Shown here: in pieces, positions 1,058-10,752 of the stretch
Layout: each line of letters begins with the position of its first letter
How positions within the stretch are numbered: the stretch's first letter is position 1
Source: Promethearchaeota archaeon
Lineage (GTDB): Archaea; Asgardarchaeota; Odinarchaeia; Odinarchaeales; JBHLKK01
Reading direction: 5' to 3'
Length of the DNA stretch: 10,752 nucleotides
Assembly (NCBI GenBank): GCA_048939465.1
Contig: JBHLPL010000066.1
Location: forward strand, 1-10,752
Position numbers and translations under genes: made by a program
Notes under the pieces: model-generated
Databases searched by the model: none
Told to the model about the DNA's origin: nothing
Seen by the model: the letters and a program-made list of their open reading frames with translations, nothing else

Positions 1058-2968
1058 ATGAAGTCTGTGAAAAGAGATTTAGTCAATAAAAAACGCACGC
1101 TAGGTAAATTTTACACAAGAGGAGACGTCGCCGATCTTATAAACGCGTTCTGTATAAAGACAGGCAACGAAACCATAGCCGATTTCAGCTGCGGCGAAGG
1201 CATTTTCTTGATAAGGGCATACTCTATGCTCAAGTATCTTGATCCAGAGAAAACCCATAGCAAGCTGGTAACTCAACTTCTCGGAGTGGACATAGATCTG
1301 CCATTCATCAGTCTTCCTCCTTTGGGAGCCCCCTCGAACAACCTGCATTACTTGAATTCAAAGCCTGAGTTATACTGCCGAGATTTCTTTGATTTAAGAC
1401 CTGAGGATTTTCCGGAATTTGATGCAGTGATTGGAAATCCTCCCTATACTAGACATGAGAGGCTCGGGGATATGACTCCCGATTATGGAAATAAGTTGAG
1501 AAAAGTGCTCCAGACTGACTGGAGCAAGGAAATCCGTCTCAATCGGGCCGGAATTCATATATATTTCATATTGCATAGCCTGAAGTTTCTCAGACCCGGC
1601 GGGTGTCTGGGACTTGTGATTTCCAAATCGTGGCTGGATGCGGATTACGGGAGGCAACTACGCAAATTCCTTTTGAAGAATACAAGAATAAGAGCCATTG
1701 TAGAGAGCAAGGTTGAACGATGGTTCAGTGATGCCGATGTGAATACGGTGATCGTCATCCTGGAGAAAATAGATGAGAGGTGTATTCCGAGCGATAATAT
1801 CATAAAATTCGTCCAATTCTTAATTCCCTTAAATCGTCTTTTTCCAGAAGGCTGCAAATGCGAAAGAACAAGATTCCGAGCCATAACAGGAATTGTAGAT
1901 CTGATTGAAAATACTGAAAAGCCCTATATCGATGGAAGAATAAGAATAATCCCCCGGGAACAGAACAGGCTTAAGGGAAGAATCTTTCGAGACCGCAGAC
2001 TGGAATCAAAATGGGGCGTATACTTGCGAGCTCCATCAATATTCTTTGAAGTCCTGAAGAAGGCCAAAGAATACCTTATACCTCTTGAGAGAATCGCCGA
2101 AGTGAAACGGGGGTTTGCCACTGGTTGCAATGAGTTTTTCTATCTGACAAGAGATGATATACAGAAATGGCAGATAGAAGAAGAATTCTGGACGATTGCT
2201 GAGAACGGGATGTCGGTGCCGAACTATGTCATTAGGCATCCGAGAGAGAGCACAGCACTGAATATAGCACCGGAGCGGCTCAGCCATTTTGTGTTGACCG
2301 TAACCAAGGATAAGCGGGATTTAGTTGGCACGAACGTATTAGACTATGTCCAATGGGGTGAAAAGCAAGGCTACGATAATCGGACTACTTGTCTAGCACG
2401 TCCAAGATGGTATGACTTAGGTAAAAGGAAACCTGCAAAGATGCTATTTCTGAGGGCCACATCGGACAGACCAGCCACATACGTATGCAAGACTGGGTTA
2501 CTGCATGACCAGACTTTCTATTCAATCAATTCAAGAAACGAGCTTTGGACAACTGTTATTGCAGCTATCTTGAATTCAAGCCTTGAAAACTTCTTTTTTA
2601 GAGAATTACTAAGCGGGGCCGGAATTGCATTGGGCTTGGGGGCCCTATGGAGCACAGTCCGTGATGTCAAATCGCTTCCAATACTTAATCCTGAGAAGCT
2701 GGACAAATACCAAACCAGAATCCTTGAAAGAAGTCTCACAAGATTATTATCCAGGCCAGTATATTCTGTTTTTGAAGAAATCGGGGCCAAGACCGCCGCT
2801 GAGGTTTCCATCAACAATGTGAAGCCAGACAGGATGAATTTGGACCAGATTGTTTTCGATGCAATCAATCTGAATAAAGGAGAGCAATTAAGAGTATACA
2901 GGGCAGTCATAGATCTGACGTTATCTAGGTTGAAACGTGCAAAATGGAAAACGGGAGGACGGTCCTGA
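1058..2968 (+). CDS. N6-adenine DNA methyltransferase, gamma class (Eco57I/TaqI-like MTase domain plus C-terminal target-recognition region)
   Basis: 636-aa ORF. Motif X GKFYT, motif I DFSCGEG (SAM-binding, a variant of DPxCGxG), motif II GVDID, motif IV VIGNPPY, later SWLDADYG and WFSDADVNTVIVIL. No N-terminal nuclease domain precedes motif X. Confidence 0.88.
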   Translation: MKSVKRDLVNKKRTLGKFYTRGDVADLINAFCIKTGNETIADFSCGEGIFLIRAYSMLKYLDPEKTHSKLVTQLLGVDIDLPFISLPPLGAPSNNLHYLNSKPELYCRDFFDLRPEDFPEFDAVIGNPPYTRHERLGDMTPDYGNKLRKVLQTDWSKEIRLNRAGIHIYFILHSLKFLRPGGCLGLVISKSWLDADYGRQLRKFLLKNTRIRAIVESKVERWFSDADVNTVIVILEKIDERCIPSDNIIKFVQFLIPLNRLFPEGCKCERTRFRAITGIVDLIENTEKPYIDGRIRIIPREQNRLKGRIFRDRRLESKWGVYLRAPSIFFEVLKKAKEYLIPLERIAEVKRGFATGCNEFFYLTRDDIQKWQIEEEFWTIAENGMSVPNYVIRHPRESTALNIAPERLSHFVLTVTKDKRDLVGTNVLDYVQWGEKQGYDNRTTCLARPRWYDLGKRKPAKMLFLRATSDRPATYVCKTGLLHDQTFYSINSRNELWTTVIAAILNSSLENFFFRELLSGAGIALGLGALWSTVRDVKSLPILNPEKLDKYQTRILERSLTRLLSRPVYSVFEEIGAKTAAEVSINNVKPDRMNLDQIVFDAINLNKGEQLRVYRAVIDLTLSRLKRAKWKTGGRS

Positions 2969-3097
2969 TCATCCATGTAACAATTCGAGAATACCACATC
3001 AATGAGAACATAAGGCTTTTATATGACGGATATATTACTGCTGAGAAAAATCACAAAAAGGGGTCATCGCTGTTCAGGAAGATTTCAAAAGAGAGCC

Positions 3098-3138
3098 ATC
3101 CAGGCACCGAAAGGCTGGGATCTTTATTATTCCTTTTA
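3098..3138 (+). terminator. Hairpin with GAAA loop followed by a T-rich tract; possible terminator or processing site
   Basis: ATCCAG-GCA-CC-GAAA-GG-CTGGGAT (3098-3121), then CTTTATTATTCCTTTT, ~130 bp after the MTase stop. The reverse strand is also followed by CTCTCTTTTG. Confidence 0.3.
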
Positions 3139-3521
3139 GATTCTTCTCCTCTCCCCCCTAATCTAGAGATCCCTCCCGGTAACGCTGCACGGATACATAA
3201 ACTGATGCTTGAACAACATGGTCTCAATCGGATCTAGAATGCATCAATATAGGATTTTCTCTCCTTTCAAACGCCTGAGAACTATTATGTCAACTGTTCC
3301 CGGCTTCCGCAAGGAGCTTCCTGTTTCATCCATTCCCCAACGGGATATGCTCTTGCAGGCTCTGCGGACAGTTCCTGCTCTGAAACCCTGTGTTTGCGAA
3401 TTGGCCAGTGTTGCCTCGACTCAATTCCATCTGCTTGTCGTGAAGACAAGTATTTGAACACCTCGCGATTCATCTCCACTCTTTCGGATGGGGTCTTCTT
3501 GCGGGCAATAGATAAATAGTC

Positions 3522-3602: not shown

Positions 3603-4442
3603 ATGATAAGCATCTCGGACAAAGCAAAAAGGGAACCTGTCAAAGAAATCTCATGCCCTAATTGTCGTAGCCATAAGTTATATGTAGACAATCAACGTGG
3701 TGAAATAGTCTGCGGAGAATGTGGAACGGTGGTAACCAAACGAATCCTGAGTGCGGCAAGAACCTATGAGGGAACCCGCTCTTCTTATGTTCCGAGACCC
3801 CGAACTCCTAAATCAATGGCAGCATACAGAAAGATACAGCGACTGCAAAAGCAATTGCAGGCCTCTCGGACTCTCATCTCTACTGCTCGGGAAGTTCAGC
3901 GCATCACATCCCAGCTAGATGTTCCCGAGCTAGTAAAAAAAACAGCTATTTCTGTTGGCAAAAAGGCCGTGGATAAAGGGTTGGCTCGCGGACGTTCGGC
4001 CGTTGACATAGCTGCAGCCGCCGTCTTAATTGCAGCAAGATTACATAAAATGCCAATAAGCCACAAAGAAGTCACAAGAGTATCCAAGATACCAACGGAA
4101 GAAAAATTAGGAAAGGTCTACCGAAGCGTTACCCGCGCTCTGAAGATAAGGATTCCAGTTCCGAAATCTAGTCATTTCGTATCTCAATTGGCCAACAAAC
4201 TAGGTCTGTCCATGAAGGTTCAGACGGGAGCTTACAATATTCTAAAAAGACTAGAGGGTACGAACATTTCTCATGGAAGGGATCCAAGAGGAATAGCGGG
4301 CGCCGCAATATATATTGCATCAATCGTCCACGGTGAAAGAAGAACGCAGTCAGAGGTTTCAGAGGCTACCGGGATAACTGAAGTAACTTTAAGAAAACGA
4401 TACAAAGAATTAGTTCAAAAGCTTAAGCTGAAAATGAGTTGA
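3603..4442 (+). CDS. tfb: Transcription initiation factor B (TFB/TFIIB family), divergent paralog
   Basis: 279 aa. N-terminal Zn ribbon CPNC…RGEIVCGECG. Two cyclin-fold repeats (KGLARGRSAVDIAAAAVLIAAR; GRDPRGIAGAAIYIAS). C-terminal HTH RTQSEVSEATGITEVTLRKRYKEL. The usual GPEWR(A)F B-reader motif is absent. Confidence 0.93.
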   Translation: MISISDKAKREPVKEISCPNCRSHKLYVDNQRGEIVCGECGTVVTKRILSAARTYEGTRSSYVPRPRTPKSMAAYRKIQRLQKQLQASRTLISTAREVQRITSQLDVPELVKKTAISVGKKAVDKGLARGRSAVDIAAAAVLIAARLHKMPISHKEVTRVSKIPTEEKLGKVYRSVTRALKIRIPVPKSSHFVSQLANKLGLSMKVQTGAYNILKRLEGTNISHGRDPRGIAGAAIYIASIVHGERRTQSEVSEATGITEVTLRKRYKELVQKLKLKMS

Positions 4443-4497: not shown

Positions 4498-5769
4498 GTG
4501 TCACTGTTGACCCTTGAGATTGCTGTTTCTGAAAGCTTTGATCGAAAAGTGAGGAATGCACTGCGCGAAATAAAACTCAGGGAAAGATCTAAGAAAACAG
4601 AACTGAATCAAGATTTGCCGGTATTGAAGAAGATCCTCACTCCCCTTCAGCCAATAAATGCTGTCAAAGAAGACTTCCTGATCGGCGGGGTAGATGGAAG
4701 TGGCGTCCCCCCACTTCTTCGGTACGATGATATAATGATTCATATCATAACTGCAAATCTGGCTGTCTATAACACGAGTGCTCGTACTGATCAGATAATA
4801 AAACATGTTCCATTAACCGATTCCTCGCCTATACCTGATAGAGGTCAGCTTATTGAGGCATTTTGGATTTCAATGGAAAATAGCTTGACTTGGAGATATA
4901 TTGAGGAATTCATCAAACGCATTTATATGCTTAAGAATGTAAATGAGCTTCTTTTTCCGCTTTTCGGTGATGTTGCTGGAGCTCAGGTTTCCTCTCTTAA
5001 AGATATTGCCAAACTCGGCTTTAGGATAACTTCACTGGAGCAAATAGCTACACTCCCGTCTGCATCAGACATCCTTCACATTCATGATCTTATGCGATCG
5101 ATAACGGAATTCGCATTGGCTAGACGAGCAATTGAATCCAATCTATCTTTCAAATACCTGTTCATCGATACATCCTTAACCCTTCTTATTCCGAAAGGTA
5201 GGAAATACTCACGTCTGATAGACGATTATCTTAAACGCGATCTCTGCAAGAGAGCAAAAGAACGTGACACCATACTGCTGTGGGTTTCCAAGACTCACAC
5301 CATTCCGTGTGCTAGTTTGATTGCTGACTTGGCCGAGAAGGAGTTTGGCAAGGATGCATTATGGTTTTGTAGAATTACGGGCGACGAGGACCCTGAAGGA
5401 CGGCTCTCAATCCTGCGTGATAGACACTACGTTCCACCGGTGGCTGCAGTAACATATATCTTCCGCTTTTCCAGAGATTCTCCCATCTTCAGGCTGGATT
5501 TAGATAGAAATTGGTGGAAAGAGAATATGTATGACGAAAAAGCTACTAGCATGAAGGAAAATGAGAAAAGGTTGTTTGGCGAAATAGAATACATAAGCCG
5601 CGATGCTAGATGGTTCGGCTATCCTGCCCCCCTCTCCTTTGCTCACATCAATTGCAGAGTATCCAAAGAGGAAGCATCTTTAATGATTGAACGTGCCATA
5701 AGCATCGCAAAGGAAGAAGGATTCGATGACGAAAAGCTTATCGATCCTCGCTCGCGTATTGGATTATGA
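4498..5769 (+). CDS. nurA: NurA-family 5'-3' nuclease (RNase H fold)
   Basis: 423 aa. IGGVDGS (catalytic Asp), MRSITEFALA (Glu), LFIDTSL (second Asp; normally DG), WVSK, and C-terminal GYPAPLSFAH (His). Directly upstream of herA. The true start may be TTG 4507, 6 nt after GAGGTG. Confidence 0.85.
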   Translation: MSLLTLEIAVSESFDRKVRNALREIKLRERSKKTELNQDLPVLKKILTPLQPINAVKEDFLIGGVDGSGVPPLLRYDDIMIHIITANLAVYNTSARTDQIIKHVPLTDSSPIPDRGQLIEAFWISMENSLTWRYIEEFIKRIYMLKNVNELLFPLFGDVAGAQVSSLKDIAKLGFRITSLEQIATLPSASDILHIHDLMRSITEFALARRAIESNLSFKYLFIDTSLTLLIPKGRKYSRLIDDYLKRDLCKRAKERDTILLWVSKTHTIPCASLIADLAEKEFGKDALWFCRITGDEDPEGRLSILRDRHYVPPVAAVTYIFRFSRDSPIFRLDLDRNWWKENMYDEKATSMKENEKRLFGEIEYISRDARWFGYPAPLSFAHINCRVSKEEASLMIERAISIAKEEGFDDEKLIDPRSRIGL

Positions 5770-5777
5770 ACTGAGGG

Positions 5778-7511
5778 TTGAAAGTGGAAAGAAGTAATGA
5801 AACATTTGGCGAATCTTTCGGAAAGCTGGCCGGAGGAAGCATGGAAGAACTCCTACTGATCACACAAAATAGGGATATTTCGTTAGGAGAATTCTTCCTA
5901 ATCCCATCAAAGCGAGGGGAGAATGAACGGATTTTCATATTTAGAGTCCTTGACGCTCAGAACATAATGAGAAGCGTTACCAATCTTTCAAGGCTCGCAG
6001 GGACGTTGGTTACCGAAGGACGTTCTTATTTTGCCGATAGTGATAGGGAAAAGCTCCTTGGAGTATTTGGTAAGCTCTTGGGCTATTCTGAGAAGAAGGG
6101 AGACAACTGGACCTTCATGCTGCCGAGAAGATTGCCCGAGCATCTTGCGACAGTTTACCGTCCTACTGAAGAGACCGATGCGTTAATGGAGAAGCTCTTA
6201 GGAAGTCAGGTCGATGGAAGTCTATACGTTGGCAATCTCCAGGCTGGAAGCCGATCTTTGAATATTGATGTCAGGCTTCCTCTTCATTTCATGCCGATGC
6301 ACATGGGAATATTCGGGACAACAGGATCAGGTAAATCGAACCTAGTCGAGGTTTTGCTCAAATCCTGTATTGATTTAAACATGAAGGTAATCCAAGAGGG
6401 CAAAGGACGTAGGCTTTCAATGTTGGCTATCGATCCTCATGATGAGTTTGCCTTAGGGATAGATACGCACGGGATACAAGACATCGTGGATTCATTAGAT
6501 GTTGAGGCTCGAAGAGCTATAATCGGAGACTTTTATTATCTTACGCCATACTTGGGTGCTGCAGCTAGACGAATTCGACCATATACCAGGGCAATAAGAA
6601 TATTGTGGAAGGAAATAACTCCTCAAGACATTCTAAGCGTTCGAAGGTTTGAACCCCAGCAAGTAGATTTTCTTTCGGTCGCTCATAACAAGTGGGGACA
6701 GGAATGGATTAATGAAACCTTAAAACAGGAAGGTCCTGTGCTAGGCCACCGTGAGATCACTGTTAGAGCCGTCCAACGAAGATTGAGATTCATGGAACGC
6801 TCTTCCATCTTCACAAGCGAGGGGGAGTCCGTCTTGGGCGATTTGATTGAGGCTTTGGAAGGTGGCCATCCTGTGATCGTTAACACAAGTCTGCTCAGCG
6901 ATATTGAGCAATTCCTATTTACGACGGTGGTGTCTCGCACACTATTTGATTTACGTCGGGCCTTGAAGTCCTCAACAAACTGGAGTGAATTTAGTAAGCA
7001 AGCAGAGATGAGGCTCCCTCCGTCTTTCTTCTCCTCATTTAAGAGCAAGGCCAAGAAGTTTTATGTAAAGGGACGTTCAGGTGAGACTTCTGTTATCAAA
7101 GATCCGGCAGATCTACCGGTAGTTCTGGTCACAGTTGAAGAAGCCCCTTCCATACTCAATCCAGAGTTAATGAGAGGCGAGAGCGTCTTTAAATCGATCG
7201 CAAGGCAGGGCAGAAAATTCCAAATAGGGCTGATTGTCATCTCTCAGCAGGTAAGTGCTATCGATAGCGTTATCCTGTCTCAAATGAACACCGAAATAAA
7301 TCTTAAGCTGGGGAATGAAGATGAGATCAGGGCCGCTGTCAAGAATGCATCAACGAACATCTCAGGATTCGAGAAGGAATTCAAGGCTATGGACCGCGGA
7401 GAGGCTTTACTGACTGCAAGCTATCGAAAGATGCCGCTCCCCATAAAAATACCGAAATTCGATGACCTTTTTAAAAAAGATAGCAAGACTTATGCCTCAG
7501 GGTCTCTTTAG
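5778..7511 (+). CDS. herA: HerA-family ATPase / bipolar helicase-translocase (FtsK/HerA superfamily, DUF87)
   Basis: 577 aa. N-terminal HAS-barrel-like region, HMGIFGTTGSGKSN (Walker A, ~6315-6338), LAIDPHDEF, VTVEEAP (Walker B), IARQGRKFQIGLIVISQQ (Arg finger and Gln motif). Alternative start GTG 5784. Confidence 0.92.
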   Translation: MKVERSNETFGESFGKLAGGSMEELLLITQNRDISLGEFFLIPSKRGENERIFIFRVLDAQNIMRSVTNLSRLAGTLVTEGRSYFADSDREKLLGVFGKLLGYSEKKGDNWTFMLPRRLPEHLATVYRPTEETDALMEKLLGSQVDGSLYVGNLQAGSRSLNIDVRLPLHFMPMHMGIFGTTGSGKSNLVEVLLKSCIDLNMKVIQEGKGRRLSMLAIDPHDEFALGIDTHGIQDIVDSLDVEARRAIIGDFYYLTPYLGAAARRIRPYTRAIRILWKEITPQDILSVRRFEPQQVDFLSVAHNKWGQEWINETLKQEGPVLGHREITVRAVQRRLRFMERSSIFTSEGESVLGDLIEALEGGHPVIVNTSLLSDIEQFLFTTVVSRTLFDLRRALKSSTNWSEFSKQAEMRLPPSFFSSFKSKAKKFYVKGRSGETSVIKDPADLPVVLVTVEEAPSILNPELMRGESVFKSIARQGRKFQIGLIVISQQVSAIDSVILSQMNTEINLKLGNEDEIRAAVKNASTNISGFEKEFKAMDRGEALLTASYRKMPLPIKIPKFDDLFKKDSKTYASGSL

Positions 7512-7610: not shown

Positions 7611-8931
7611 ATGGTTGTGATAGCTCATGTCTCTGATACTCATCTAGGATATCGAACAACTGAGGGCGTTCGCGGTGGATGGGATGTGGAACGAAAGACT
7701 CGAAGGATAGAAAATGATTTCTACGAATCTTGGGAACATGTACTCAAAGAAATTACGGATCGAAAAGATGAGATAGATCTGATAGTACATGCGGGTGACC
7801 TTTTCGATACGCCTTGACTAATCGAGTTTGATGCTCATTAGGGGTAAGGATCGGAAGCCTCACCCTCCGCCCGAAGTAGCTAGAGAGGTTGTATTTAGGA
7901 GTCTGAAATCATTCTTCTCAGAAACGAAGATTCCAATGTTTGCCATAGATGGTAACCATGGTGTATATACTGGTTATCATGCGTCTACGTTAGACACCTT
8001 GAAGATAGCCTTTCCTAAGTTGCATGTTATTACGCGATGGGATTTGTGGGATGCAATATTCAAGGGAAAATCTCTTTATCTAGACTCTAATGACGCAAGA
8101 ATCTTCGGCTTTCCTTACATAACCTCCGATATAATTGATAGATATGGCTTGACTTATGACTTCAATAGCTGGATTGTAAATCTGCAAACCCCCTCCGAGA
8201 ATAGGATCAATATTGCTGTTGTTCATGGCATGACTATCGATAATTCTCTGAATCCCAGAATATTAGACAATGGATATGATTATGTCGCTCTTGGGCACGA
8301 CCATCGGATGCACAAAATGTCTGAGAACTCCTGGTACTCCGGTTCAACAGAACGTTGGAGGTTTGATGAATGCGACCATCCGAAAGGTTTTCTCATAGCT
8401 CAAGTAGAATCGGATGAGCCAGCTGAGATCAAAAGAGTTCATCTGAAATTGGGAAGGCCGATGTATGTTAAGAGAATAGAGGTTGGCTCAGACCTTACTT
8501 CGAAGCAGATTAATGAAAGAGTAATGAGCTGGATCGAGAAACTGGGATTAGCCTGCGGGTGGGATTCCAAGACTGGCGCTAGGCTGAAATTCATTTTTGA
8601 AGGGAAGATTCCGGTTGAATTCTGGAGAATCACAAACGAACTTGAGTTACTGAGAAGGGAACTCCTTGGAAATGATGATTACAATGTAGTTCAACTGGTC
8701 TGGGACTGGAAGGCTGCACTCAGAGAATGGATTCCGCCTGCATTTCAAGATGAAGGTGTTGAGTATCTTATCGGGGATCCTGAGAAGGATTTCGAAGACT
8801 ATCTCAAAGCGATTGAAATCGAAGAGGGTTTTGAGCCAGCGCTACTGATTAAGATTGCCAGCAAAGCAATCAAAAAGACGTTAATGGGTGGTAGGAGTGC
8901 TGATAAAAAGGATCAGACTGAGGAACTTTAA
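7611..8931 (+). CDS. mre11: Mre11/SbcD metallophosphoesterase nuclease; predicted join(7611..7816,7848..8931), 429 aa after splicing
   Basis: Motif I AHVSDTHLG and motif II HAGDLFD are in the 5' piece. Motif III IDGNHG, motif IV AVVHG, motif V ALGHDH and YSGSTER are in the 3' piece. The pieces are in different frames and are rejoined by removing 7817-7847. ATG 7611 is preferred over GTG 7602 because of SD spacing. Confidence 0.9.
7817..7847 (+). other. Putative 31-nt bulge-helix-bulge (archaeal tRNA-type) intron in the mre11 mRNA
   Basis: Central 4-bp helix GCCT(7811-14)/GGGT(7842-45); 3-nt bulges TGA(7815-17) and AAG(7846-48); intron stem CTAAT(7818-22)/ATTAG(7837-41) + GAG/CTC. Exon-exon stem TTTTCGAT.C(7801-10)/GATCGGAAG(7849-57), plus GGGTGA(7793-98)/TCACCC(7860-65). 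Cuts TG|A and AA|G restore the frame. Confidence 0.8.
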
Positions 8932-10752
8932 GCCCTTCAAAGATTTAATACTTCCCGGAAAGGATCAAGTCTTTCCTGAGGGCCTTATACTAATTGAAGG
9001 AAGGAACTCCTCGGGAAAATCTTCAATAGTCGAGGCAATCCTGTGGGCATTCTGGGGACCAAGCGCAGTAGTTCTCAGCAATGAGGATCTGATCCGATTT
9101 GGGAGCTCCAAATGTCAAGTTATCGTTGAATTCGAAGTTGAAGGAAACGGATATGTGATAGATCGTTCTTACGAGCGGGGGGGAACCATTCATGTTGCTT
9201 TGTCTCAGATTGTCGATGGGCAGAAGAGAATCCTAGCAAGCAAGTCTGGCGGAGTTGATCGAGAGCTCTTCAGCATTCTAAGAATCGGGTACCAGCAGGC
9301 TTTGAAAACTCTTTTGATCCGCCAAGGCGAGGTAGCCGAGCTTGCGACAGCAACTCCTGCCAGACTTCGAGAACTCATACAAGACGTTTACAACCTGAAG
9401 ATCTTTGATCAAGTAGGAAACACGCTACGGGATGAAGAGAATACGGTTCAGGGCAAGATCGGGAGAATAGAACAAGATTACATAGATCCGAACATCATAA
9501 AAAAGCAAGCTGATTCCCTAAGAAGAAGGATGAAGGAAGTCGATAAGGAAATCGTTAAGCTTTCGAAATCTGAGAAAGAGCTGAAGGGAAATCTAGATCT
9601 TCTGCCTGAAGCCAACCTCATACGAGCCATGGAGCTAGCAAAAGCCCGAGTTGATGATTCAAGTGAATCCATCCAAAAAGAGAATAAGCGGCTCCAAAAT
9701 AAGTATAGAGAACTAAGAATGACTCCCCCCAAGGGGATCTCAGATCTGGCTCTAGTTAGAAGAAAAGTCAAAGCAGATCAATTGAAGATAGAAAAGAGGA
9801 TAGCAAATGGTAGAAAGAAATCTGATGCCTTAGTCGAGGAAATTGGACGTCTGAGAGGAGTAAATCGAGGTCTCGAAGAAAAAATCCAAAGACTAAGCGA
9901 ACCTTCCCTTGCCAAAGGAAGAGTTTTTAGATGCCCGACCTGTAATACCCCCCTCTCATTGAAGAAGAGAGATGATATCATTTCAGACTATAAGGGAGTT
10001 ATTGATTCTAATAACAAAACCATTTCGAGGCAGCAAACAGAGAATGGGAGACTGCACATCAAAACGGAGCAGTTAGACCGGAAACGGATTGAGCTGATTC
10101 ACCTTGACAATGAGTTGAATACGATTCCTGAGATCTACAACAGAATAGATTCTCTCCAAGAGACTAGGAGCCTGAATTCATCTGAGTTGAGAGGAATGCT
10201 TGAAGAGACTGGTTCCTCTTCTCTGGAGGGGCTTCTCTCGAAGTTTTCGGCCAGAACCTTCTCAGATTTGAATTCGCTGGTTCAGGAGAAGCAGAACGAA
10301 TTGCACGGGGTTGTTGCTGAGATCAAAGCTAAGAGGGGTGAATTAGACGTCATCGATCAGCAAATAAAGGAGCTTAAATCGCAAAGAAGCAAAATGGAGA
10401 AGCTGGCAAAAGAGCGAGAGAAGTTGGAATACTTGGACAGACATATCCAACACCTTCGAAAAGTGTTGATGAAAGGATTCCTCACTCAGTTTGTGGTTCA
10501 GAGACGTCTTCTCGGGGCTATAAAGCGGGCTTCTGCAGTTTATCTAAGCAGGTTTACTGCAGGTCAGTACGTCTACGTCGATCTTATTCCCACGGAAGCC
10601 AGGGGGGGAGGCGGTTCTGGATTAAGTCTTCAAATAGAAGACAGAATGGACGGCATGTTTAAACAGAAAGAACAGTTGAGTTTTGGAGACAGGACAGCTG
10701 TTGGACTTGCACTTCGGCTGGGGATTGCACAAACTATGGCCAGAATCAGGCC
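8897..10752 (+). CDS. rad50: Rad50/SbcC SMC-family ATPase (3' end outside the window; absent from the supplied ORF track)
   Basis: Manual translation from GTG 8897 is stop-free to the window end (618 codons): MLIKRIRLRNFKPF, Walker A EGRNSSGKSS, Q-loop LIRQGEV, coiled coil, Zn hook CPTC (9932-9943), ABC signature-like LSFGDR (10676-10693). Overlaps the mre11 3' end by 35 nt. Confidence 0.93.
   Translation, partial: MLIKRIRLRNFKPFKDLILPGKDQVFPEGLILIEGRNSSGKSSIVEAILWAFWGPSAVVLSNEDLIRFGSSKCQVIVEFEVEGNGYVIDRSYERGGTIHVALSQIVDGQKRILASKSGGVDRELFSILRIGYQQALKTLLIRQGEVAELATATPARLRELIQDVYNLKIFDQVGNTLRDEENTVQGKIGRIEQDYIDPNIIKKQADSLRRRMKEVDKEIVKLSKSEKELKGNLDLLPEANLIRAMELAKARVDDSSESIQKENKRLQNKYRELRMTPPKGISDLALVRRKVKADQLKIEKRIANGRKKSDALVEEIGRLRGVNRGLEEKIQRLSEPSLAKGRVFRCPTCNTPLSLKKRDDIISDYKGVIDSNNKTISRQQTENGRLHIKTEQLDRKRIELIHLDNELNTIPEIYNRIDSLQETRSLNSSELRGMLEETGSSSLEGLLSKFSARTFSDLNSLVQEKQNELHGVVAEIKAKRGELDVIDQQIKELKSQRSKMEKLAKEREKLEYLDRHIQHLRKVLMKGFLTQFVVQRRLLGAIKRASAVYLSRFTAGQYVYVDLIPTEARGGGGSGLSLQIEDRMDGMFKQKEQLSFGDRTAVGLALRLGIAQTMARIR

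Follow-up and report, generated by a model that had tools for sequence, protein, structure and literature searches.

The stretch of DNA analysed here (the window) is a complete 10.75-kb contig of 10,752 nucleotides, JBHLPL010000066.1, from a metagenome-assembled genome (MAG) of a Promethearchaeota archaeon that is 1.96 Mb in size and 91% complete. One strand of the window carries, in order, a TFB gene, an open reading frame (ORF) of 423 residues, herA, mre11 and rad50. The herA gene (5778-7511, + strand; Pfam DUF87/HerA) is the upstream member of this repair cluster and rad50 (8888-10750, + strand; Pfam AAA_23 and SMC_N) the downstream member, which leaves the contig; between them mre11 (7611-8931, + strand), beginning with ATG at 7611, has an interrupted reading frame. 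A sequence-only reading of the window, made from the letters without database searches, had proposed that the interruption is an archaeal intron of the bulge-helix-bulge (BHB) type, and that production of Mre11 depends on the tRNA splicing machinery. We report here that positions 7817-7847 very probably are a BHB intron in the mre11 pre-mRNA. That proposal is supported by the junction seen in intact orthologues, by conservation of the insert, by purifying selection on the flanking coding sequence and by the machinery encoded in the genome, splicing itself being predicted.

Interruption of the mre11 reading frame

Several features indicate that the gene is mre11/sbcD: a Pfam Metallophos match to residues 4-67 in exon 1; the phosphoesterase motifs DTH, GDLFD, GNH and GHDH, which can be read in the translated frames; homologues with the name DNA repair exonuclease and the domains PF00149 and PF12850; and the herA-mre11-rad50 gene order expected for an Mre11/SbcD nuclease.

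The N-terminal frame begins MVVIAHVSDTHLG and ends ...HAGDLFDTP, where it meets TGA at 7815-7817. The other 360 codons lie in the +1 frame, where a TAA stands at 7819 and the frame is open only from 7822. Deletion of exactly 7817-7847 yields an ORF of 429 residues reading GDLFDTPWDRKPHPPPE. Exon 1 (7611-7816, + strand) would thereby contribute 68 codons, including motifs I (DTH) and II (GDLFD), and the TG of a split Trp codon; exon 2 (7848-8931, + strand) would supply the third base of that codon, followed by 360 further codons and a stop at 8929-8931. The predicted BHB-type intron between them (7817-7847, + strand) is 31 nt long, lies in phase 2 and contains stops in all three frames (TAA 7819, TGA 7829, TAG 7839 and TAA 7845), and its removal restores DTPWDRKPHPPPE, with the Trp codon rebuilt from TG 7815-7816 and G 7848. 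Across the junction the spliced Mre11 would read HAGDLFDTPWDRKPHPPPEVARE, or over a longer stretch HAGDLFDTPWDRKPHPPPEVAREVVFR...IDGNHG, and the predicted spliced mRNA joins ...GATACGCCTTG to GGATCGGAAGCC...

When the 31-nt cut is moved by one base in either direction a TAG or TGA arises, and no other 31-nt register yields Trp. With no overlap between these two frames, and with the 31 nt closed in every frame, the two parts of the gene cannot be joined by one indel or by a simple frameshift; a simple +1 frameshift was rejected outright, frame 0 shutting at 7815 and the downstream frame opening only at 7822. The sequence-only reading had placed the halt of mre11 at TGA 7815-7817, just after GDLFD, with resumption in another frame, had derived an intact Mre11 of about 429 residues from excision of 31 nt with stops in the neighbouring registers, and had excluded one indel or a simple frameshift from the stops in the insert; all of its coordinates are correct and each of these points was reproduced. 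It had further expected annotation pipelines to misread the gene, and the NCBI annotation indeed reports only a C-terminal piece of 367 residues, as 'exonuclease SbcCD subunit D'.

Junction defined by intact orthologues

A search of 40 related genomes retrieved intact mre11 genes in one piece, with open frames of 425-485 residues. These intron-less orthologues read GDLFDSPWDRNPHPPPE, with the same spacing as the spliced Mre11. The nearest of them (50-52% identity) read HAGDLFDSPWDRNPHPPPEVARE, or over a longer stretch HAGDLFDSPWDRNPHPPPEVARELVYK...IDGNHG with identical spacing to GNH, and more distant intact orthologues read DSPWENNPSQPP or DSPWEGNPSQPP. The nearest intact homologues are labelled Odinarchaeia and the NCBI labels encountered are Hodarchaeota and Promethearchaeota, so that taxonomy at the class level is uncertain.

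Cutting after the second nucleotide of the bulge on both sides of the predicted fold (described below) would produce a junction that matches these orthologues in both sequence and spacing. Only excision of 7817-7847, at the BHB cut sites, recovers the conserved Trp together with the correct spacing, and this favours an intron. According to the sequence-only reading, homologues that pass directly from GDLFDTP to HPPPE would instead have favoured an inactivating insertion; the intact orthologues read DSPWDRNPHPPPE or DSPWENNPSQPP, again in favour of an intron.

Predicted structure at the exon-intron boundaries

The region surrounding the insert folds into each of the elements of a BHB. Its central helix (H) comprises a 5' strand GCCU (7811-7814, + strand) and a 3' strand GGGU (7842-7845, + strand), read from the sequence, which form the pairs G7811-U7845, C7812-G7844, C7813-G7843 and U7814-G7842; both strands are invariant in six variants of the locus obtained from other metagenomes (see below). 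On either side stand the 5' bulge UGA (7815-7817, + strand), with a predicted cut at 7816/7817 and a third base that is A or G among the variants, and the 3' bulge AAG (7846-7848, + strand), with a predicted cut at 7847/7848 and a second base that is A, G or C. The intron itself forms a hairpin (h'; 7818-7841, + strand) of 5 bp, a bulged C7823, 4 bp and a 5-nt loop at 7828-7832. In the folds, the exon 1 strand (7793-7810, + strand) and the exon 2 strand (7849-7865, + strand) form an outer exon-exon helix (h) in which all 15 of 15 positions are paired, in segments of 1, 8 and 6 bp that are interrupted by the bulged A7809 and by a 2x2 internal loop, the pair 7805:7853 varying among relatives. 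In this 3-4-3 BHB, restoration of the protein requires cuts after the second nucleotide of each 3-nt bulge, which is the canonical position.

To estimate how often such a structure would arise by chance, the pair of sites was set beforehand by protein homology and frequencies were taken from this genome. At a fixed pair of sites the basic BHB geometry has a frequency of 3.7e-4, and the frequency falls to 3e-7 for a motif of the strength seen here; the BHB motif at mre11 goes beyond chance.

Conservation of the insert and selection across variants

Six diverged variants of the locus, from independent metagenomes, were collected among NCBI MAGs and Logan, JGI and ENA contigs by way of members of the C-terminal protein cluster. 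The insert is 31 nt long in all six, a sister species and five further variants; in the sister species (JBHLKK010000037.1, labelled Candidatus Hodarchaeota) it occupies the same codon, with an exon 2 protein that is 82% identical. Contigs of four independent studies aligned to the window displayed no indel and no intron-less joint; these include an 8.4-kb mangrove contig with one difference in 601 bases, and relatives at 85% and 89% identity. A concern that raw reads might expose the insert as an assembly artefact, voiced in the sequence-only reading, can be dismissed, the insert being present in contigs of four studies and in the six variants; an artefact is rejected by the near-identity of the 8.4-kb contig from another study and by retention of the insert in diverged relatives. 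A separate protein-pattern scan of JGI metagenome contigs found no relative.

Both parts of the gene have evolved under constraint. The ratio of nonsynonymous to synonymous divergence (dN/dS) is 0.07-0.12 for exon 1, relative to four variants, and 0.09-0.10 for exon 2, with a synonymous divergence (dS) from the window of 0.5-1.16. The intron differs at one to four of its 31 positions, whereas change at the synonymous rate would have produced 12-18 differences (P 1e-4 to 1e-9). Together, the low dN/dS of the exons and the conserved insert indicate that mre11 is functional and that the insert itself is under selection. A search of the whole genome with the intron by blastn-short detected no second copy, and the intron is thus not a repeated mobile element.

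The few substitutions that occur are distributed in keeping with the predicted fold. Five intron sites vary: 7817 in the 5' bulge, 7847 in the 3' bulge, 7828 in the loop, and 7821 and 7833 in the stem. Both stem substitutions retain pairing (A-U to G-U at 7821, U-G to U-A at 7833), none of the intron substitutions breaks a pair, and the central helix is the same in every variant. The outer-helix pair 7805:7853 occurs as C-G, C.A or U-A, the 5' change being synonymous (TTC to TTT). Over the whole alignment 98.2% of cells are paired, versus 39-54% in slid controls; one pair is compensatory, and three single changes preserve pairing. This pattern of substitution is consistent with a BHB, short of proving one. 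Pairing in the outer helix also differs between genomes with and without the insert: 15 of 15 positions pair here, whereas orthologues that have no intron reach 10-11 of 15 when the encoded peptide is identical and five to seven of 15 when they are more distant, a gradient that suggests adaptation of the exon codons to the motif.

One variant, v4 (L038:725-805, L043, run X17), has G at 7817, which converts TGA to TGG and extends the unspliced N-terminal ORF from 68 to 76 residues.

Splicing machinery and interrupted genes in the genome

Two EndA paralogues (C90 and C139) are encoded in the genome, and both Pfam domains, N-terminal and catalytic, occur in each. The C90 protein can be aligned in full with the A. 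pernix catalytic subunit alpha, part of a heterotetramer (3P1Z_B; E 1.5e-44); its loop RKPK falls opposite EKPR, the equivalents of K44 and R46 being retained, including the CSL lysine. This loop and lysine confer broad specificity, so that BHB motifs can be cut beyond the anticodon loop as well (PMC3241643), and Asgard EndA has been described as an (alpha-beta)2 type with a broad-specificity loop insert (PMC5829648). Two RtcB ligase genes are also present. One of these, on contig C31 (2961-5708, - strand; L046, L048), is a frame of 973 residues in which profile positions 1-57 and 45-426 are matched about 1.4 kb apart, and it looks like an intein-containing RtcB.

Introns are frequent among the tRNA genes of this organism: ARAGORN identified 25 tRNA genes in the 91%-complete genome, 19 of the 25 with introns; introns have probably fragmented many more beyond detection. 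Heavily interrupted tRNA genes have been described for some Asgard archaea (bioRxiv 10.64898/2026.10.13.758758), a description that this genome fits.

Interruption is also seen in protein genes. The gatA gene (Amidase; C77:43519-44908, - strand; L053-L055) consists of three profile-contiguous pieces, covering positions 1-105, 104-153 and 155-445, that are separated by inserts of about 30 nt. Removal of a 29-nt hairpin (44385-44413) restores the signature GSDTGG joined to SIRQPA; in the other insert, a 36-nt register is the best BHB candidate and leads to the wrong frame. Separately, ahcY (AdoHcyase) occurs as several matching pieces with stops between them on C118 (315-951, - strand), with one piece on C24 (7080-7271).

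We infer that EndA and RtcB are the enzymes responsible and that Mre11 cannot be made without splicing. The transcript would fold with exon 1 (7793-7810) paired to exon 2 (7849-7865), and the 4-bp helix (7811-7814 with 7842-7845) would then be flanked by the two 3-nt bulges while the intron closes as its own hairpin. The two-paralogue EndA, of crenarchaeal type and with a broad-specificity loop, would cut after the second nucleotide of each bulge, and RtcB would ligate the exons, creating a Trp codon from UG and G and an mRNA for the 429-residue Mre11.

Evidence against an intron and alternative explanations

Several observations weigh against interpretation of the insert as a BHB intron. In the fold, the two G-U pairs within the central helix are weak points, and a single outer pair (C7810-G7849) stands alone beside the 3' bulge before the bulged A7809. 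The predicted optimum at 37 C is a shifted register, better by 1.5 kcal/mol (-28.5 versus -27.0), and in all six variants the BHB fold lies 1-2.6 kcal/mol above the minimum free energy; at 55-70 C the best fold includes the central helix and both bulges. Among the variants, three have a C.A mismatch at 7805:7853, and covariation is not significant, 333 of 500 shuffled alignments scoring at least as high as the real one, a consequence of the near-identity of the six sequences (97% across the motif). An ab initio scan of the genome gave no excess of BHB candidates over decoys at any stringency (124 versus 100-135; 27 versus 17-23). Finally, the whole case for splicing is drawn from DNA sequence.

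Two expectations of the sequence-only reading are modified accordingly. It had termed the motif a canonical BHB: all of its pairs, bulges and coordinates are correct, and 'canonical' is slightly generous in view of the one outer pair before bulged A7809. The single outer pair and bulged A next to the 3' bulge make this motif near-canonical and slightly relaxed rather than a textbook BHB. It had also looked to intron-bearing relatives for covarying BHB pairs, and these provided one compensatory pair without statistical significance.

The scan just mentioned sought a 4-bp helix, two 3-nt bulges and flanking pairs that join open frames, with scoring by codon usage and decoy offsets. It recovered the mre11 intron, and its strict filter missed the gatA insert. 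Lacking an excess over decoys, it is uninformative about the number of mRNA introns and lends no independent support to widespread ones. The mre11 intron may be one part of a genome-wide layer of mRNA splicing, obligatory and dependent on EndA, that in this Asgard lineage with small genomes extends to genes of DNA repair, translation and core metabolism; this is an idea we offer tentatively, and one toward which we lean slightly less than away.

Three other explanations of the insert were considered. In the first, which is very unlikely, the insert is removed by some means other than EndA: either by another structure-specific nuclease with a ligase, or at the level of DNA in part of the population. 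Room for this is left by the predicted status of the role of EndA and by the slight departure of the motif from a textbook BHB. However, the cut sites that the protein requires coincide to the nucleotide with the EndA rule, a different nuclease is not needed to explain the data, and DNA-level removal does not accord with the absence of an intron-less joint in the contigs of four studies. We know of no other archaeal enzyme that excises 31-nt hairpins with this geometry.

A second explanation, which we consider more improbable still, is that the gene has been inactivated or split by an insertion of 31 bp, or of 46 bp flanked by GCCT, leaving a pseudogene or two polypeptides of 68 and about 360 residues that assemble. 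Gene callers and NCBI do report two pieces or the C-terminal piece alone, and translation could, in this genome, begin at TTG 7828 or ATG 7831. These internal starts are not conserved, however, one variant (G001) having CTG and ATA in their place; the end of the N-terminal ORF varies as well, lying at 68 residues in most variants and at 76 in v4, and a break at this point would destroy the conserved Trp codon. Strong purifying selection acts on both pieces across dS > 1 while the length of the insert is exactly kept, which argues against a pseudogene and a split gene alike, and this is the sole mre11 found in the 91%-complete genome, located between intact herA and rad50.

The least credible of the three is a translational bypass like that of phage T4 gene 60, with peptidyl-tRNA-Pro moving from CCU 7812-7814 to CCU 7858-7860 over 43 skipped nt to give GDLFDTP-HPPPE: the locus does offer matching take-off and landing codons, the latter in the downstream frame, a stop after the take-off codon and a stable hairpin directly next to it, but the product would lack W-D-R-K, conserved in intact orthologues (WDRN, WENN, WEGN) and still encoded in frame at 7848-7857, where the only changes among variants are R to Q and the synonymous CGG to CGA; variant v4 (L038, L043, run X17) has UGG and hence no stop after the take-off codon; and the exact 3-4-3 geometry of the bulges would be left unexplained.

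Relation to known systems

The precedent for a BHB intron in an archaeal pre-mRNA is cbf5, the gene for a pseudouridine synthase, in Crenarchaeota, including Aeropyrum, Sulfolobales and Desulfurococcales (Watanabe 2002; Yoshinari 2006; Yokobori 2009, PMC2738675), and at the time of the last of these reports it was the sole archaeal pre-mRNA with confirmed splicing (PMC2738675). The two cases are alike in that a short intron lies within coding sequence with a BHB at its boundaries, removed in cbf5 by a hetero-oligomeric splicing endonuclease, and in that gene prediction is similarly misled, reporting a split gene or an apparent frameshift. They differ in gene and lineage, mre11 encoding a nuclease of double-strand-break repair in an Asgard archaeon, and in that splicing is demonstrated for cbf5 and predicted here. 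The mechanism proposed is that established for crenarchaeal cbf5, and its application to mre11 is strongly supported by comparative evidence. Searches of the literature returned no report linking mre11 with a BHB and none on BHB introns in Asgard mRNA.

Like the BHB introns of archaeal pre-tRNA and pre-rRNA, the mre11 intron has a 3-4-3 motif, the same predicted cut positions, a similar size and a presumed dependence on EndA and RtcB; unlike them, its exon helix is constrained both by protein sequence and by pairing. A further parallel is found in eukaryotes, where IRE1 cuts a short intron from HAC1/XBP1 mRNA at RNA stem-loops and ligation follows (by RtcB in animals), changing the reading frame independently of the spliceosome. 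The reference list of PMC5829648 includes work on a role of RtcB in mRNA ligation of this kind. Both systems would remove an mRNA intron without a spliceosome, by a protein endonuclease and ligation, and alter the reading frame; the endonuclease and motif are different, and HAC1/XBP1 splicing is regulatory, whereas that of mre11 is apparently obligatory. The likeness to T4 gene 60 is confined to the gap in the coding sequence, which follows a stop and spans about 45-50 nt, to the hairpin and to the matching codons on either side; unlike gene 60, a bypass here would give a product missing conserved residues, and one natural variant has no stop.

Endonuclease-dependent splicing has been published for one archaeal protein gene, cbf5, and mre11 would be a well-supported second case, given added weight by its role in double-strand-break repair and by its occurrence in the archaeal group closest to eukaryotes. 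If borne out, it would mean that the tRNA-splicing machinery could gate the expression of unrelated essential functions, and it raises the question of how a cell with no nucleus avoids translating unspliced mRNA. Were the tentative genome-wide layer of splicing also real, the cell would need a means to keep ribosomes off unspliced transcripts, providing a prokaryotic precedent for the separation of RNA processing from translation. There is a practical consequence as well: pipelines return a truncated 'SbcCD subunit D' that lacks catalytic motifs I and II, so that inventories of such genomes contain too few intact genes. The mre11 case is easily testable, with the junction, the enzyme genes and the 31-nt circular product all defined.

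Other features of the window

The open frame of rad50, from GTG 8888, shares 44 nt with the end of mre11 (8888-8931, + strand). On the other side of the cluster, the ORF of 423 residues (4498-5769, + strand) adjoins herA upstream, in the usual place of nurA, and has no Pfam match even at E = 1. Just 5' of the repair cluster lies the TFB paralogue (3603-4442, + strand), of 279 residues, with a Zn ribbon and two TFIIB repeats. Two ORFs, at 2944-3237 and 3209-3457 (+ strand), occupy different frames with an overlap of 29 nt and are negative in Pfam; they may represent another interrupted gene, or nothing. A further gene, at 1058-2968 (+ strand), encodes a restriction-modification protein of 636 residues, of the Eco57I/N6-methylase type.
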